DNA of 64,000 nucleotides. Source: Candidatus Saccharimonadia bacterium (GTDB taxonomy: Bacteria; Patescibacteriota; Saccharimonadia; UBA4664). The notes under the pieces were generated by a model. That model was not told the origin of the DNA. It worked only from the letters and a program-made list of their open reading frames with translations, and searched no databases. The stretch is taken from NCBI GenBank assembly GCA_038245115.1, contig JBBRSS010000001.1, positions 25,234 through 89,233 on the forward strand. Direction: 5' to 3'. A program made the position numbers and the translations under genes. The first letter of the stretch is position 1. Each line of letters starts with the position of its first letter. Of the stretch, positions 28,397 through 33,237 are shown in pieces.

Positions 28397-31393
28397 TTGA
28401 CACCGATCACGGCCATCTTTCAGATTATTGGCCTGATCTTATTTAAGTTTTACGGCTGGGTCGTTGTGGTAGCCGTACTCGGTTATTTGTTTTATCAAAA
28501 CCAGCGCAAGGTCAAATGGATCGGATCCACCGAGAACATCCTCCTGCTCATCGAAGTCCCCAAAGACAACGAAAAGAAGGAGTTGTCCGCCGAACAAATG
28601 TTTGCCTCGCTCCACGGCATCCTGCGTCCCAAATCCGAACTCCAGCGCGACGGGTCGATCCAGGAACACATCTCGTTCGAAATTGTCTCACGTCTTAATT
28701 CAATCCAGTTTTATGTCTGGACCCCCAAACATCTCAAGGACTTCGTCGAGAGCCAAGTCTACGCCCAATACCCGACCGTCCAGATCAAAGAAGGGCCGTC
28801 TGACTACTCCGCCATCGACATCGCTGGCCGAACCATCTACGGAACCGAACTCGGGCTCACCAAAAATTCGATGATGCCCATCAAAACCTTCGCCTCATTC
28901 GAGGTCGACCCCCTCGCCGGCATCACGGGCGTTTTAGCGAAACTCGAACAAACCGGCGAAGAAGTCTGGATTCAAATTCTAGCCCGGCCCATCGATGATT
29001 CCTGGCAAAACTTGGGCAAATCCTATATCGACGGCATCAAAGGGGGGAGTAAGGGACCTCTGGACATTTTCAGCCTCGATGGGCTACTCCAATTGCCGAT
29101 TTATATTATCACCACCTTCTTCACAGCCCTATTTACCCCGCCCAGCGCAACCGCCGGCAAAACCCCGGATAAAAAAGAGATCAGTACTGGCGACCAAACC
29201 GTCATAAAGGCCGTTGAAGAGAAAATCGTCAAGCTCGGCTATGAAGTCAAAATACGCATCGCCTATTTGGGGCCCGATGAAGCCTCGGGTAGACAACGGC
29301 TCCAAGCTATCGTGGGCGGGTTCAAACAATTCAATACAACCAACCTTAATGGCTTCACCAACGCCAAAATGTACAATTCAGCTGAGTTTATCGGCGACTA
29401 CCAGGCCCGGTTGTTCTTCGACTCCGGCTACATCCTCAATATCGAAGAGCTGGCGTCGCTATACCATCTGCCCCATAAGTCCGTTGAAACCCCCAACATG
29501 GTCTGGACGACGGCCAAAACCAGCGAGCCGCCCTCTAACATCCCCGTCGAAGGAATAGGGGAGCCTGGCGAACTCAGCCTCTTCGGCCTCACCAACTTCC
29601 GCGGCCGCCACCTCAAGTTTGGTATCAACCGCCGCGATCGAGGGCGCCACATGTACATCATTGGCCAGACCGGCGCCGGCAAATCATTCCTCTTGCAGCT
29701 GCTCACTTTGTCCGACATCTATCATGACCAAGGCTTCGCCATTGTCGACCCCCACGGCGACTTCGCCACCGACATCATGAAATACATCCCCGAGCACCGC
29801 CTCAACGATGTCGTCTATCTCAACCCGGCCGACCGTGACTTCCCGATGGCCTTTAACCCCATGGAAATCACCGACCCGGCCATGAAAGACCACATCAGCT
29901 CCGAACTCGTGGGTGTACTCAAGCGCATGTTCGAATCCTGGGGGCCGCGTTTGGAATACATTCTGCGCTATACCATTTTGGCCCTCCTCGACCACCCCGA
30001 TTCGACCATGCTCGACATTACCCGCATGCTCAACGAAAAAGACTTCCGCAAGCAGGTCATCAATAGCATTCAGGACCCGGTTGTTAAAAGCTTCTGGATT
30101 ACAGAATTCGCCTCCTGGAACGAAAAATTTGCTTCCGAGGCTGTCGCGCCTGTGCTCAACAAGGTCGGAGCATTCGTGGCCAACCCGCTGGTGCGTAACA
30201 TCATCGGGCAAAAAAAGAGCGCCTTCAATATTCGCGAAATCATGGACGAAGGCAAAATCCTCCTCGTAAACCTCAGCCGCGGTCAGGTCGGTGAAGATAA
30301 CGCCGCCATCCTAGGCGCCCTAATGGTTACCAAGATTCAGCTGGCCGCTATGAGCCGAGCCGACATGCCGCTCGAACAACGCCGCCCCTTCTATCTCTAC
30401 GTCGACGAATTCCAGAACTTCGCCACCGACTCGTTCGCGGTTATTCTCTCAGAAGCCCGCAAGTACGGCCTCAACCTCACCGTGGCCAACCAGTACGTCT
30501 CCCAAATGCCCGAGGTCGTGCGCGACGCCGTCTTTGGTAACGTTGGTACTATGGTAAGTTTCCGCATTGGACCGGGCGATTCTACCGTGCTCGGCCGCTA
30601 CTTTGAGCCCGTCTTTGAAGCCATTGACCTCACCAAACTCCACAACCAAAATATCTTCATCTCCATGATTATCGACGGCGAAAAAGCCGCCCCATTCTCG
30701 GCCTCAACCCTACGTATGCCCGATCCGGAAAACGATCAAACCGCCCGCATTATTTCGATATCCCGCGAACGCTTTGCCTCTCACCGAGAAGAAGTCGAGG
30801 TTGATATTCGTTCTCGTACAGCCGGTGGCAATGATCAAGGCGCTCGCGCCGTCAATACTTCCGCCGGTGATCAAAAACCGAACAAAGAACTACTTAACGT
30901 CCTCAAGAACCCCGACCGTCCCCGCAACGAGCCCAGGCGCGACGACCGTCGAGCAGGGGAGTCGGGGGGCGGGGGACGCGGCCCTGGGCGCGACGATAAC
31001 CGCCGCCCACACGAATCGCAGGGCGCCAGCGCACCATACAGCGGGGGAGGCGACCGCCGCGAGCGTTCAAACTCGAGCAGGGGAGCGAGCGCACCGTATC
31101 GGCCCAGTGCGGGAGCCAGTGCCCCCTACAAGCCTCGTCCCGAGAACCAGCAGCCGGCACCAGTCCAGCAGGCCCCTGCCAGCACCCCATATCGTCCCGA
31201 GGAGCACCGTGACGCCGCTCCAACCCCAACTCACATGCAAACCCCTCACCACCAAACGCAAACGCAACCGCCCGCCACACCAGCCACTCGCGCCCCGGAG
31301 CCAACTGCACCCACCCCAGCCGCCTCTACCAGCCACCCGTCCACCCAAGCATCCCATGCTGTTGAACCAGGCGAAGCTATCAGCCTGCGCTAA
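28397..31393 (+). CDS. membrane-anchored FtsK/HerA-superfamily P-loop ATPase, VirB4/VirD4 (type IV secretion)-like, with long disordered C-terminal tail
   Basis: There is an N-terminal TM segment. Walker A is IIGQTGAGKS, a DPHGD (DPKGE-like) motif is present, and Walker B is LYVDEFQNF. The C-terminal ~200 aa are low-complexity Pro/Ala/Thr/Arg-rich with three GASAPY repeats. The start is uncertain (see finding on ATT). Confidence 0.55.
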   Translation: MTPITAIFQIIGLILFKFYGWVVVVAVLGYLFYQNQRKVKWIGSTENILLLIEVPKDNEKKELSAEQMFASLHGILRPKSELQRDGSIQEHISFEIVSRLNSIQFYVWTPKHLKDFVESQVYAQYPTVQIKEGPSDYSAIDIAGRTIYGTELGLTKNSMMPIKTFASFEVDPLAGITGVLAKLEQTGEEVWIQILARPIDDSWQNLGKSYIDGIKGGSKGPLDIFSLDGLLQLPIYIITTFFTALFTPPSATAGKTPDKKEISTGDQTVIKAVEEKIVKLGYEVKIRIAYLGPDEASGRQRLQAIVGGFKQFNTTNLNGFTNAKMYNSAEFIGDYQARLFFDSGYILNIEELASLYHLPHKSVETPNMVWTTAKTSEPPSNIPVEGIGEPGELSLFGLTNFRGRHLKFGINRRDRGRHMYIIGQTGAGKSFLLQLLTLSDIYHDQGFAIVDPHGDFATDIMKYIPEHRLNDVVYLNPADRDFPMAFNPMEITDPAMKDHISSELVGVLKRMFESWGPRLEYILRYTILALLDHPDSTMLDITRMLNEKDFRKQVINSIQDPVVKSFWITEFASWNEKFASEAVAPVLNKVGAFVANPLVRNIIGQKKSAFNIREIMDEGKILLVNLSRGQVGEDNAAILGALMVTKIQLAAMSRADMPLEQRRPFYLYVDEFQNFATDSFAVILSEARKYGLNLTVANQYVSQMPEVVRDAVFGNVGTMVSFRIGPGDSTVLGRYFEPVFEAIDLTKLHNQNIFISMIIDGEKAAPFSASTLRMPDPENDQTARIISISRERFASHREEVEVDIRSRTAGGNDQGARAVNTSAGDQKPNKELLNVLKNPDRPRNEPRRDDRRAGESGGGGRGPGRDDNRRPHESQGASAPYSGGGDRRERSNSSRGASAPYRPSAGASAPYKPRPENQQPAPVQQAPASTPYRPEEHRDAAPTPTHMQTPHHQTQTQPPATPATRAPEPTAPTPAASTSHPSTQASHAVEPGEAISLR
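30780..31390 (+). repeat. low-complexity repeat-containing coding tail (GASAPY x3, Arg/Gly-rich, Pro/Thr/Gln-rich)
   Basis: Short direct repeats are visible in the translation of the ATPase 3' end, and there is purine/pyrimidine compositional skew. Confidence 0.6.
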
Positions 31394-32064
31394 GCTGCGC
31401 TGTTATCGTCGAGGATTAACGATTGATAGTTAGCAGGATCTGGATACCTGCTATAATGAGCCAAAATGTTCCTGAATTCGACGAGACCCGTAACTCTTAG
31501 TCGTGGGATAAGTCTCATCTTACCCATATGCATTGCTGCATATTCAATATCATCTTCAGATAGCTCCAAGTTCGCGCATACGAAATAAAGGGGGACTGAT
31601 TTTGGAAAATCCAGGTATTTTGGAATTTTGATATTTACGTTGCTTTGTAGGGTACGAATGGTATTGGGGTAAAAGATATCAATACCGATATTACCTTCCG
31701 GCGTGAACACCATAAAATCAAGCCTACTGCCTTGTCGCCCGTAGCGCTTCTCCGTATGAACATACAGCTCCCCAAACTGATGGATGAGTTCAATCTCAAG
31801 CTCTTGTTCGCTTTTTAGCCCCCGGATTGAGCTCTTGGTTGCACTAGCCGACCTATTTTCGCCACTGCCGAAATCAATATCCTCGTAGCCAAGGTCCTGA
31901 CGAAGCCTTTTTAGCCCACCAAATCCCCGTTGAATCTGTCGCGATGAAGGCAAAAAATTTGTATTGTCAATTTCGTGGGCAGTAGGAAGTCTCCCCTCTT
32001 CTAAAATAAATTTATCAAAGCCAGCCTTAATGTTCGCTAACGTCCAAATTGTTTCGAAAGTCAT
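31390..32064 (-). CDS. orphan hypothetical protein in AT-rich island (possible nuclease-like fold)
   Basis: The 224-aa ORF lies in a region clearly more AT-rich than its flanks. It has no confident motif; RLDFMVF...GIDIF...NIKIPK is weakly reminiscent of PD-(D/E)xK. It is convergent with the ATPase gene and overlaps it by 4 nt. Confidence 0.4.
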   Translation of the reverse strand: MTFETIWTLANIKAGFDKFILEEGRLPTAHEIDNTNFLPSSRQIQRGFGGLKRLRQDLGYEDIDFGSGENRSASATKSSIRGLKSEQELEIELIHQFGELYVHTEKRYGRQGSRLDFMVFTPEGNIGIDIFYPNTIRTLQSNVNIKIPKYLDFPKSVPLYFVCANLELSEDDIEYAAMHMGKMRLIPRLRVTGLVEFRNILAHYSRYPDPANYQSLILDDNSAA

Positions 32065-32375
32065 ATAACTCCTTCTTGTAAGGGGACACTAGGCTATGTA
32101 AATTAGGGCAAGAGCGTATGGGCAATCTGAGCATAAAAAGTATACACGATTTCAAGGGTTAACGAAAGGAAGAAAAGGGTACAAACATACTACTTGAAGC
32201 AAAAGCAGTTAACGTCGCACATTGTAGATTTTGCGGCCTAAATAAGCCAAAGCACTGTTTTAGAACCAAATACACCAAATATCAGGTTTTCAAATAATTT
32301 ATATAATTTTCTTTCTTTACGCTTTACTTGCTACCCCAACAAACTGCAATTCCCGAAAAACCCCTTATTCTTACC

Positions 32376-32403
32376 ACCCCAAACAACTGCCTGACCAGGG
32401 CAG
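32376..32403 (-). terminator. putative intrinsic terminator after ftsQ
   Basis: A short stem ctgcc/ggcag (loop tgaccag) is followed on the minus strand by ttgtttgggg. It is weak. Confidence 0.3.
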
Positions 32404-32433
32404 ACAAAAACCGAACTTACAAATAGGGAACCG

Positions 32434-33237
32434 CTATTTATAATATGCCTTACCGGCAATGCGCAGGTCGATGTATTCCGCCGGAGTGCGCTTCTGAGCC
32501 ACTAGCAGCCGCTGTACGGCCTTCAAGTCCGCTATCTCCTCGCTGGTACTTCTATTGGTATCAAACAGCAACCGATACCCCTTGTTAGTCTGAGCCGACA
32601 GATCAAAGGTTGTATCTTTAATGTCTAATCGTGTCACTCCAATACCGCTTTGCGCCAACTCCGCCACAATCTGACTCGCAAATTCTACGAAGTGGACCGA
32701 AGCTACCCGTTGCCCAACCTGAACCGGCAAATTACTGCCATCATAAACCACCGGGAATATCACTGGCCCCGCTGCCACACCAATGACGGTGCCGTCCTTA
32801 TCGAGGACGTAAGTTTGATTACCGGTACTCCAACCCAAGCTAGCCTGCTTGAGTGTAGAAGTTACAACAATAGTATGAAACCACTTACGCTTCACTGTCA
32901 CTGTTCGTAATGACGGATCGGTTTGTTTTAATTTTGCAATAAAATCATCCGAACTAAAAGTTACCAGATTCCCCCACCACAGATTGCCCGCCACCAATTT
33001 TCTGGATGCGGACTCTATTTCTGCCATGCGCGCCGGGGCGCTTACCGTTACCGTACGTAAGGCAAACAACTGCACTATCCCCCACCCCGCCAATAGTAGT
33101 AATACGAAAATTATCAGCCCTCTTCGCTGCAGGACACTCAGCCGCGGACGCCTTGGTCCCCTCCTTGGTCCCCTGCTCAATGGCTGTACCCGGCCGTACA
33201 CCGGACGGCCAGCCGACCTGACTATCCGCTGACTCAC
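32434..33237 (-). CDS. ftsQ: cell division protein FtsQ/DivIB
   Basis: A basic N-terminus and a single TM segment are followed by a POTRA-like domain. It sits downstream of murG in the dcw cluster. Confidence 0.75.
   Translation of the reverse strand: MSQRIVRSAGRPVYGRVQPLSRGPRRGPRRPRLSVLQRRGLIIFVLLLLAGWGIVQLFALRTVTVSAPARMAEIESASRKLVAGNLWWGNLVTFSSDDFIAKLKQTDPSLRTVTVKRKWFHTIVVTSTLKQASLGWSTGNQTYVLDKDGTVIGVAAGPVIFPVVYDGSNLPVQVGQRVASVHFVEFASQIVAELAQSGIGVTRLDIKDTTFDLSAQTNKGYRLLFDTNRSTSEEIADLKAVQRLLVAQKRTPAEYIDLRIAGKAYYK

Follow-up and report, generated by a model that had tools for sequence, protein, structure and literature searches.

A mainly patescibacterial family of predicted PD-(D/E)xK proteins with an accessory member at the ftsQ/ATPase junction of a Saccharimonadia genome

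The DNA studied in this work (the window) is a stretch of 64,000 nucleotides from the Candidatus Saccharimonadia bacterium contig JBBRSS010000001.1. Between ftsQ, with which the dcw cluster ends, and a convergent gene for a TrwB/VirD4-like ATPase it carries a gene of 224 codons, which will be called X. X belongs to an unnamed protein family found mainly in Patescibacteria, and it is an accessory gene, present as an indel relative to the nearest relatives of this genome. The protein is predicted to consist of an N-terminal domain resembling the repeats associated with homing endonucleases and of a C-terminal domain with the PD-(D/E)xK (restriction endonuclease-like) fold, where the distribution of conserved residues points to a variant active site whose lysine has been relocated. 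The family would thus join a DNA-binding repeat of the homing endonuclease type to a variant of the restriction endonuclease fold. The interpretation favoured here, for which the chances seem to us about evenly balanced, is that X is a self-contained restriction-like endonuclease (of defence type, possibly modification-dependent) acting on incoming DNA; a homing-type selfish nuclease is the closest rival. We infer that X is not a cell-division gene. The gene, its ribosome binding site and the parts of its product are the following:

31390..32064, minus strand: gene X, encoding a 224-aa stand-alone nuclease-type protein (open reading frame (ORF) list, identical public protein, homologues, purifying selection)
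32069..32074, minus strand: Shine-Dalgarno sequence AAGGAG, 4 nt 5' of the X ATG (read from the sequence)
31867..32046, minus strand: N-terminal helical domain, residues 7-66, divergent HNH_repeat-like (P0127 alignment, PF18780 matches, structure model)
31393..31848, minus strand: C-terminal PD-(D/E)xK domain, residues 73-224 (model confidence, Foldseek, conservation in 71 homologues)
31807-31809, 31756-31758, 31717-31719, 31678-31680 and 31627-31629, minus strand: codons of the candidate active-site residues E86, H103, D116, D129 and K146, respectively

The ORF starts with ATG and contains the peptide strings quoted in the initial annotation of this DNA; its stop codon overlaps that of the convergent ATPase gene by 4 nt. 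No curated family of Pfam, PHROGs, PADLOC or NCBIfam matched the X protein of the window. When 71 homologues, the set used for residue conservation and library scans, were compared with the profile libraries, sub-threshold matches to HNH_repeat and weak ones to the unknown phrog_22655 were obtained and nothing else (the scans of loci were made with a 12-sequence alignment). Sequence and profile searches of solved structures gave nothing useful, the best match being aq_1966 with E = 2.5. To this extent the initial annotation, which had described the gene as an orphan with no recognisable family, was correct, but the orphan status has to be given up. A word-indexed search found 11 homologous clusters beyond X's own cluster (39-64% identity), an exhaustive phmmer scan found 390 representative homologue clusters at E <= 1e-3, 252 of them at E <= 1e-10, and a protein identical to the X product exists in public assemblies (P0001). 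The genomes with matches are mostly Patescibacteria (Saccharibacteria, Kaiser-, Doudna- and Parcubacteria), and a few X-bearing metagenome-assembled genomes (MAGs) are labelled Actinomycetes or Acidimicrobiales. A family of about 400 clusters is therefore missing from Pfam, NCBIfam, PADLOC and PHROG annotation, and its members come chiefly from Patescibacteria, a group whose accessory genes are still little understood. In the closest homologue pairs the ratio of nonsynonymous to synonymous substitution rates (dN/dS) was 0.05-0.16, which shows that the family is functional and not decaying. The proposal that X is a decaying remnant can be discarded also for other reasons: the gene is full length, and its catalytic-type residues are conserved.

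In the AlphaFold models four helices make up the N-domain of X, and a long helix links it to a core of the order alpha-beta-beta-beta-alpha-beta. The confidence (predicted local distance difference test, pLDDT) was 81.5 for the model of the full-length protein and 90 for that of residues 73-224. Residues 7-66 align with each of the approximately ten repeats of the homologue P0127 (phmmer 7e-22; BLASTP 1e-9 per repeat), and P0127 matches PF18780 (HNH_repeat) at 2.8e-39. The motif common to the N-domain of X and the repeats is W..E.i...f..F....GR.Pt..E.......LPS...i.r.FGG. PF18780 was matched by 36 of the 71 homologues, below the gathering score (best E 5.6e-05). The X protein of the window itself did not match this profile at E <= 1, and its link to the family is transitive, through P0127. 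Taking these similarities together, the N-domain is presumed to be a divergent homing-endonuclease-associated repeat and, as such, a DNA-binding module; HNH_repeat modules serve as DNA-binding modules in homing and HNH nucleases. X differs from the PF18780 proteins in that it contains a single copy of the repeat, whose fusion partner is a PD-(D/E)xK domain instead of HNH, and in that the repeat is below the limit of Pfam detection. Some homologues, among them proteins of the group P0014, P0019, P0011 and P0110, have an extra N-terminal helix-turn-helix (HTH) of the resolvase/sigma-70-region-4 type, and one (P0015, 363 aa) has an N-terminal RNase H/RVT_3 domain.

The suggestion in the initial annotation that the C-terminal half of the protein is compatible with a PD-(D/E)xK core is borne out by both the model and Foldseek. 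The predicted secondary structure of the C-domain is H69-97, E102-108, E113-121, E124-131, H136-150, E159-163, in agreement with the mixed sheet of four strands between helices that is typical of the superfamily. Among solved structures the nuclease domains of Can2 were the top Foldseek matches (probability 1.0), followed by other PD-(D/E)xK nucleases (overall 0.98-1.0); further matches included R2 RLE, AF1548, PspGI, EcoO109I, BamHI, XPF and Bax1, and by fold the domain also matched viral endonuclease, Vsr, Mrr and Cas4 proteins. All fold matches of the C-domain were of the PD-(D/E)xK type, at the level of the superfamily, with template modelling (TM) scores not exceeding 0.55. On the strength of the model, the C-domain is assigned to this fold: X shares the core of the superfamily members (Can2 nuclease domain nearest, then R2 RLE, AF1548, PspGI and EcoO109I) and, like them, has an acidic residue on helix 1 and Asp on strands 2 and 3. 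The assignment holds at the superfamily (fold) level only, since every named family fails at the profile level: X differs from the PD-(D/E)xK families in having no match to a Pfam, NCBIfam or PADLOC nuclease profile, in the low TM scores and in carrying its lysine on the next helix, and from Can2 in the lack of a CARF or other sensor domain.

In the 71 homologues D116 is invariant, and E86, H103, D129, K146 and Y150 are conserved to at least 90%. In the model the first helix carries E86, and strands 1, 2 and 3 carry H103, D116 and D129, respectively. The position of the canonical (D/E)xK lysine is occupied by F131, and the conserved K146 sits on the helix that follows. This arrangement suggests a variant active site with the lysine relocated to K146; such a placement would be compatible with the known lysine-relocated PD-(D/E)xK variants.

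To describe the genomic context of the family, 59 X loci were examined by clustering the neighbouring ORFs and by tblastn. Of these, 36 were non-redundant and had enough upstream sequence, and they were distributed as follows:

15 of 36 loci: xer directly upstream of X, on the same strand, with gaps of 1-25 nt
5 of 36 loci: X in the ftsQ/ATPase slot, as in the window
6 of 36 loci: X near gltX/M23
10 of 36 loci: X elsewhere

The recurrent gene order is MraY-FtsW-MurG-GltX-M23 peptidase-(small gene)-Xer-X; next come either MurI/EVE or a DEDD exonuclease, L27 and L9. The linked Xer proteins are XerC/XerD/XerA-like (E ~1e-50) and extremely conserved (4366 matches, the top 120 at least 72% identical). 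Levels of identity are correlated between X and the Xer linked to it (r = 0.73). In X-less xer loci (L066, L068-70, L073-76) the slot just 3' of xer holds other small genes, coding for DoxX or for unknown proteins of 144, 188 and 203 aa without Pfam match; because different small genes are found there, in Patescibacteria the post-xer position seems to accommodate variable cargo. A dif-like site or an IMEX (integrative mobile element exploiting Xer) cassette was considered for this slot and rejected, as no repeated site flanks X.

The loci classified as 'elsewhere' look like defence islands. The immediate neighbours of X in these loci include an HNH nuclease, a DUF5655/NucS/Shedu-like protein, the CBASS effector Cap15 (L016), a Cro/C1 HTH protein, a Thoeris ThsB TIR protein together with a PDDEXK_1 nuclease (L036), and Eco57I-type and C5 methylases. 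The loci with defence-type context are L015, L009, L016, L036 and L008. In L015 (8001-11290) the gene 160 nt 3' of X on the same strand encodes an 841-aa protein in which a C5 cytosine methylase is fused to an Eco57I/N6 methylase, and this is the only locus that resembles a restriction-modification pair. In L009 (6566-9374), a MAG with actinomycete label and 62% GC, X lies together with two unknown genes in an AT-rich islet. On either side of it stands a gene for a 137-aa double-HTH (HTH_38/HTH_7) protein; these two genes are paralogous and have a 31-nt direct repeat in common at their 5' ends. Because the islet adjoins a gene for a 1025-aa Eco57I-type methylase/restriction protein, it is probably a defence islet acquired by transfer.

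For the ftsQ/ATPase slot, the flanking genes for MraY, FtsW, MurG, FtsQ, the ATPase and a sigma-like protein were compared between genomes. The relatives of the FtsQ of the window are annotated as Saccharimonadia. Closest to the window are L060 and L062 (FtsQ 81 and 79%, MraY 94-97% identical); next in flank distance is L064 (FtsQ 68%), then L001 and L002 (55 and 47%), with L025 and L038 far outside. In L060, L062 and L064 ftsQ is convergent with the ATPase gene, the two are separated by a spacer of 415-435 nt, and tblastn detected no trace of X at these junctions, each of which is backed by independent assemblies. X fills the same slot in L001, L002, L025 and L038, in the last two in reversed orientation. 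Its identity follows flank distance (window vs L001 64%, L002 53%, L025 and L038 45%), and synonymous sites are saturated between the same-slot copies. Ancestral presence followed by at least two losses is the simplest history of the slot; a regain of X at the same site is possible. Only ~35-50 nt of the empty-site spacers can be aligned between L064 and L060/L062; these spacers are too diverged to decide between gain and loss, and the L025 copy falls apart from the window clade in a neighbour-joining (NJ) tree made without bootstrap. Of the claim that X came with a horizontally acquired, strain-specific insert, the indel relative to L060, L062 and L064 remains, whereas a recent acquisition is contradicted by the four genomes that carry X in the same slot. 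Nor does X take the place where ftsA/ftsZ would be expected, as the initial annotation had it: the cluster also ends at ftsQ in the X-less relatives, the X protein has no match to the FtsA or FtsZ families, and the FtsZ motif GGGTG[ST]G is absent from the whole window.

The persistent composition of the family is also relevant for its interpretation. The GC content of X was below that of its neighbours in about 21 of 23 loci compared, whatever the GC content of the host. Since the copies diverged anciently and are under purifying selection, the AT bias is a lasting family trait and no sign of recent arrival, for which it had been taken in the initial annotation. Mobile, defence and toxic nuclease genes commonly show such a bias.

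The defence-type reading is preferred because of the defence-gene neighbours, the sporadic distribution, the AT bias and the solitary architecture of X. In the mechanism that we envisage, X would be transcribed, in this genome, from a conserved promoter-like block located ~150 nt upstream; the N-domain would dock the protein on its DNA site, and the C-domain would cut the DNA. For the cut, E86, D116 and D129 would bind a divalent metal, and K146 would act as general base or stabiliser. The nearest parallels are the solitary Type IV/Mrr-like enzymes, in which, as in X, N-terminal DNA recognition is combined with a C-terminal PD-(D/E)xK domain in the product of one small gene without adjacent methylase. 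Sporadic distribution, AT-richness and occasional defence-island context are further common features, and a viral Mrr-domain protein was among the fold matches of X. X differs from these enzymes in that its N-domain is HNH_repeat-like and not Mrr_N or SRA, in that it has no match to the Mrr_cat profile, and in that most of its copies adjoin housekeeping genes; modification dependence is only putative for X.

Several observations weigh against a role in defence. The main fact that such a role leaves unexplained is the linkage to xer, and the co-variation of X and Xer identities is unusually stable for a defence gene. Twenty-six of the 36 informative loci lie amid housekeeping genes (xer, M23 peptidase, gltX, murI, dcw), outside defence islands. 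No known defence model of PADLOC fits X of the window, and nothing recurrent was found among the 71 homologues. No DNA methylase adjoins X in the window, where its neighbours are ftsQ and the type IV secretion system-type ATPase gene. No X copies were found on phage, plasmid or viral contigs in a pattern-based search limited by the collection. Finally, catalysis can only be inferred, because strand 3 has F131 where the classical (D/E)xK lysine would stand.

The closest rival explanation, which we regard as unlikely, is that X is a free-standing homing-type endonuclease. Such an enzyme would cut the X-less allele in the DNA of related cells, either where xer ends or at the ftsQ/ATPase junction, and X would be copied in by recombinational repair; expression would be provided by the upstream gene or by a promoter. 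Presence and absence of X at identical slots were observed in two unrelated contexts: at the ftsQ/ATPase junction (absence in L060, L062 and L064), and in L071 vs L021, xer and murI lying stop-to-stop in L071 and X lying between them in L021-24. The position of X only 1-25 nt 3' of the highly conserved xer leaves no space for a promoter of its own, the N-domain is presumably a homing-endonuclease-associated repeat, and X is AT-rich and sporadic. Moreover, the ftsQ/ATPase slot is filled in both orientations, by copies that do not cluster in the NJ tree (no bootstrap). Free-standing homing endonucleases include the PD-(D/E)xK enzyme I-Ssp6803I and modular phage HNH/GIY-YIG enzymes; they resemble X in the combination of a nuclease with a modular DNA-binding repeat, in their position between conserved genes, in read-through expression and in the patchy occupation of fixed sites. 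Unlike them, X is found outside introns, inteins and phages, and there is no clear signal of co-conversion or incongruence. Sliding identity across the dcw flank did not rise toward X in the comparison of the window with L001, with no imported tract, and the identities of X and xer co-vary, as vertical descent predicts. The X-less spacer holds 170-220 nt of unrelated sequence, so there is no clean empty site, and neither flanking repeats nor viral copies were found. PD-(D/E)xK homing enzymes are rare, and the defence-gene neighbours in other contexts suit restriction better.

The linkage to xer is given full weight by another explanation, which we consider improbable: X could be a DNA-processing factor coupled to the single Xer recombinase or to division and specific to Patescibacteria, an optional helper acting on chromosome dimers or junctions at division. 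It would be co-expressed with Xer, and the window copy beside ftsQ would be a member relocated in this Saccharimonadia clade. If true, X would be an optional helper in cells with reduced repair and segregation machinery. Besides the 15 loci with xer directly upstream on the same strand, 11 more have X in the dcw/gltX/M23/ftsQ neighbourhood. The xer-X pair stays joined even through an in-place inversion, found by comparing two Patescibacteria lineages (L004 7021-8660 vs L014 7022-8621), in which the flanks are unchanged in order and orientation (C20/M23/GltX/MurG on one side, DEDD exonuclease/L27/L9 on the other). Co-divergence with xer and strong purifying selection would also be expected of such a factor. 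The main fact against it is that X was absent from all four sampled xer loci that have the same synteny and are on long contigs (hidden Markov model search, E <= 1); it is missing from the closest relatives of the window as well. Xer and division therefore work without X. Furthermore, there is no xer in the 64-kb window, no chain of the Holliday-junction resolvases Hjc or RecU was among the top 50 fold matches, and the persistent AT bias and the copies in defence islands are atypical of a housekeeping partner. The recurrence after xer and near dcw, the frequent loss and the lasting AT-richness make up a puzzle that can be tested as defence, homing or division-linked function.

Somewhat less probable again is that X binds DNA without nuclease activity, for example as a regulator built on a degenerate PD-(D/E)xK scaffold. 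The replacement of the canonical (D/E)xK lysine by F131, the extra N-terminal HTH in many relatives and the superfamily-level fold matches with low TM scores could be understood in this way. The conservation of E86, H103, D116, D129 and K146 across 71 diverse homologues is the counter-argument, because of which a maintained active site with relocated lysine fits better.

The explanation put forward in the initial annotation, a recent and strain-specific island of ~1 kb or a decaying nuclease remnant, is highly improbable: the segment is a compositional outlier and X is missing from the three closest relatives, but X is intact and under purifying selection, distant relatives fill the same slot with saturated synonymous divergence, GC is low family-wide, ~270 nt of the segment is conserved spacer, and no integrase, tRNA or convincing terminal repeats accompany it.

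The compositional description on which that explanation was based is nevertheless accurate. The segment 31393-32433 is an AT-rich stretch of about 1 kb with a single 224-aa ORF. Its GC content is 0.419 (0.434 in the X ORF and 0.390 in the spacer), corresponding to z = -3.9 relative to the window mean of 0.524 (sd 0.027, 1041-nt windows); equally low values occur in just 0.08% of the 1041-nt windows, the lowest of all in the 64 kb being the one that starts at 31401. GC at third codon positions is 0.44 in X and 0.54-0.68 in the flanking genes, and the A/T run quoted in the initial annotation was located at 31619-31643. The contrast is sharpened by the low-complexity 3' tail of the ATPase gene (GC 0.628 in 31001-31500). 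The flanks, identified in the initial annotation as the ATPase gene and the end of the dcw cluster, were confirmed by Pfam and synteny. The features that surround X in the window are as follows:

28397..31393, plus strand: gene for the TrwB/VirD4-like DUF87 ATPase, the convergent flank (Pfam)
32065..32160, minus strand: 5' leader specific to the X-carrying allele (blastn and MAFFT vs L060, L062, L064)
32161..32433, no strand assigned: conserved AT-rich intergenic region 3' of ftsQ, common to X-carrying and X-less relatives (alignments, blastn)
32214..32250, minus strand: promoter-like block TTGGCT-18 nt-TACAAT, then GTGCGAC (promoter scan, conservation)
32387..32418, minus strand: hairpin resembling a terminator, 3' of ftsQ, with the conserved motif AAGTTCGGTTTTTGT ahead of it (terminator scan, conservation, motif search)
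32434..33237, minus strand: ftsQ, the last dcw gene in this lineage (Pfam POTRA_1 and FtsQ_DivIB_C; synteny in relatives)

In the spacer between X and ftsQ (32065-32433) ORFs do not exceed 42 aa, Rfam gave no match at E < 0.29, and there is no tRNA. The X-less spacers align with the window from 32433 down to ~32211 and, more weakly, to ~32160; on the other side, homology to the X-less relatives resumes exactly at the ATPase stop codon, at 31393. Because homology breaks at these points, the X-specific DNA is estimated at ~770 nt (31390-~32160). The spacer is AT-rich also in the X-less relatives (GC 0.43-0.47 vs 0.53-0.59). The 370-nt tail assigned to the island in the initial annotation is thus non-coding and AT-rich, as was stated, but its greater part, ~270 nt, is common to relatives with and without X and, to judge from the alignments, is the ordinary ftsQ-distal spacer of the lineage, lying outside any insert. 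A mini-island marked out by composition can consist of ordinary AT-rich spacer next to a long-established accessory gene, and a recent insertion does not have to be assumed.

Within the promoter-like block, the 24-nt core GCCGCAAAATCTACAATGTGCGAC (32214-32237) is nearly invariant in six genomes (window, L001, L002, L060, L062 and L064), X-less ones included, though the FtsQ proteins of these genomes are just 47-81% identical. It occurs once in the window. Neither conserved RNA secondary structure nor covariation was found in this block, and an RNA element in the spacer was rejected, there being no Rfam family and no conserved fold or covariation. The block is read as a promoter or a protein-binding site and is likely to be the promoter of X in this genome. 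Approximately 50 nt downstream of GCCGCAAAATCTACAATGTGCGAC, the sequence AAGATGACCTAC.ATACCCTTTCTTTTGG is also conserved in these spacers.

An imperfect direct repeat (12/14 matches) was found within ~20 nt of both borders of the X segment, at 31409-31422 (TCGAGGATTAACGA) and 32152-32165 (TCAAGGGTTAACGA). It was considered as the border of a mobile element and rejected: no comparable direct or inverted repeats flank X in seven other loci, for which reason the repeat is probably due to chance. There is no tRNA in the 25-40 kb part of the window and no integrase in the flanks of X.

Three further observations concern the surroundings of the gene. The 998-aa ATPase ends in a low-complexity tail of ~200 residues rich in Pro, Gln, Ala, Gly and Arg, with imperfect repeats (GASAPY...), encoded at 30800-31393 on the plus strand; it lifts the local GC content to 0.63, and the length of the ATPase varies between 908 and 998 aa among relatives. 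In L001 (5700-7640) the murG/ftsQ region seems broken, with MurG similarity of 36%, fragmentary calls and FtsQ in two high-scoring segment pairs, which could be due to pseudogenisation or to an assembly error. The GC skew is negative across nearly the whole window (cumulative -21.8) but positive at ~39.0-42.0 kb, and in this region GC dips to 0.44 at 40.0-40.5 kb and dips again at 42.0-42.5 kb.

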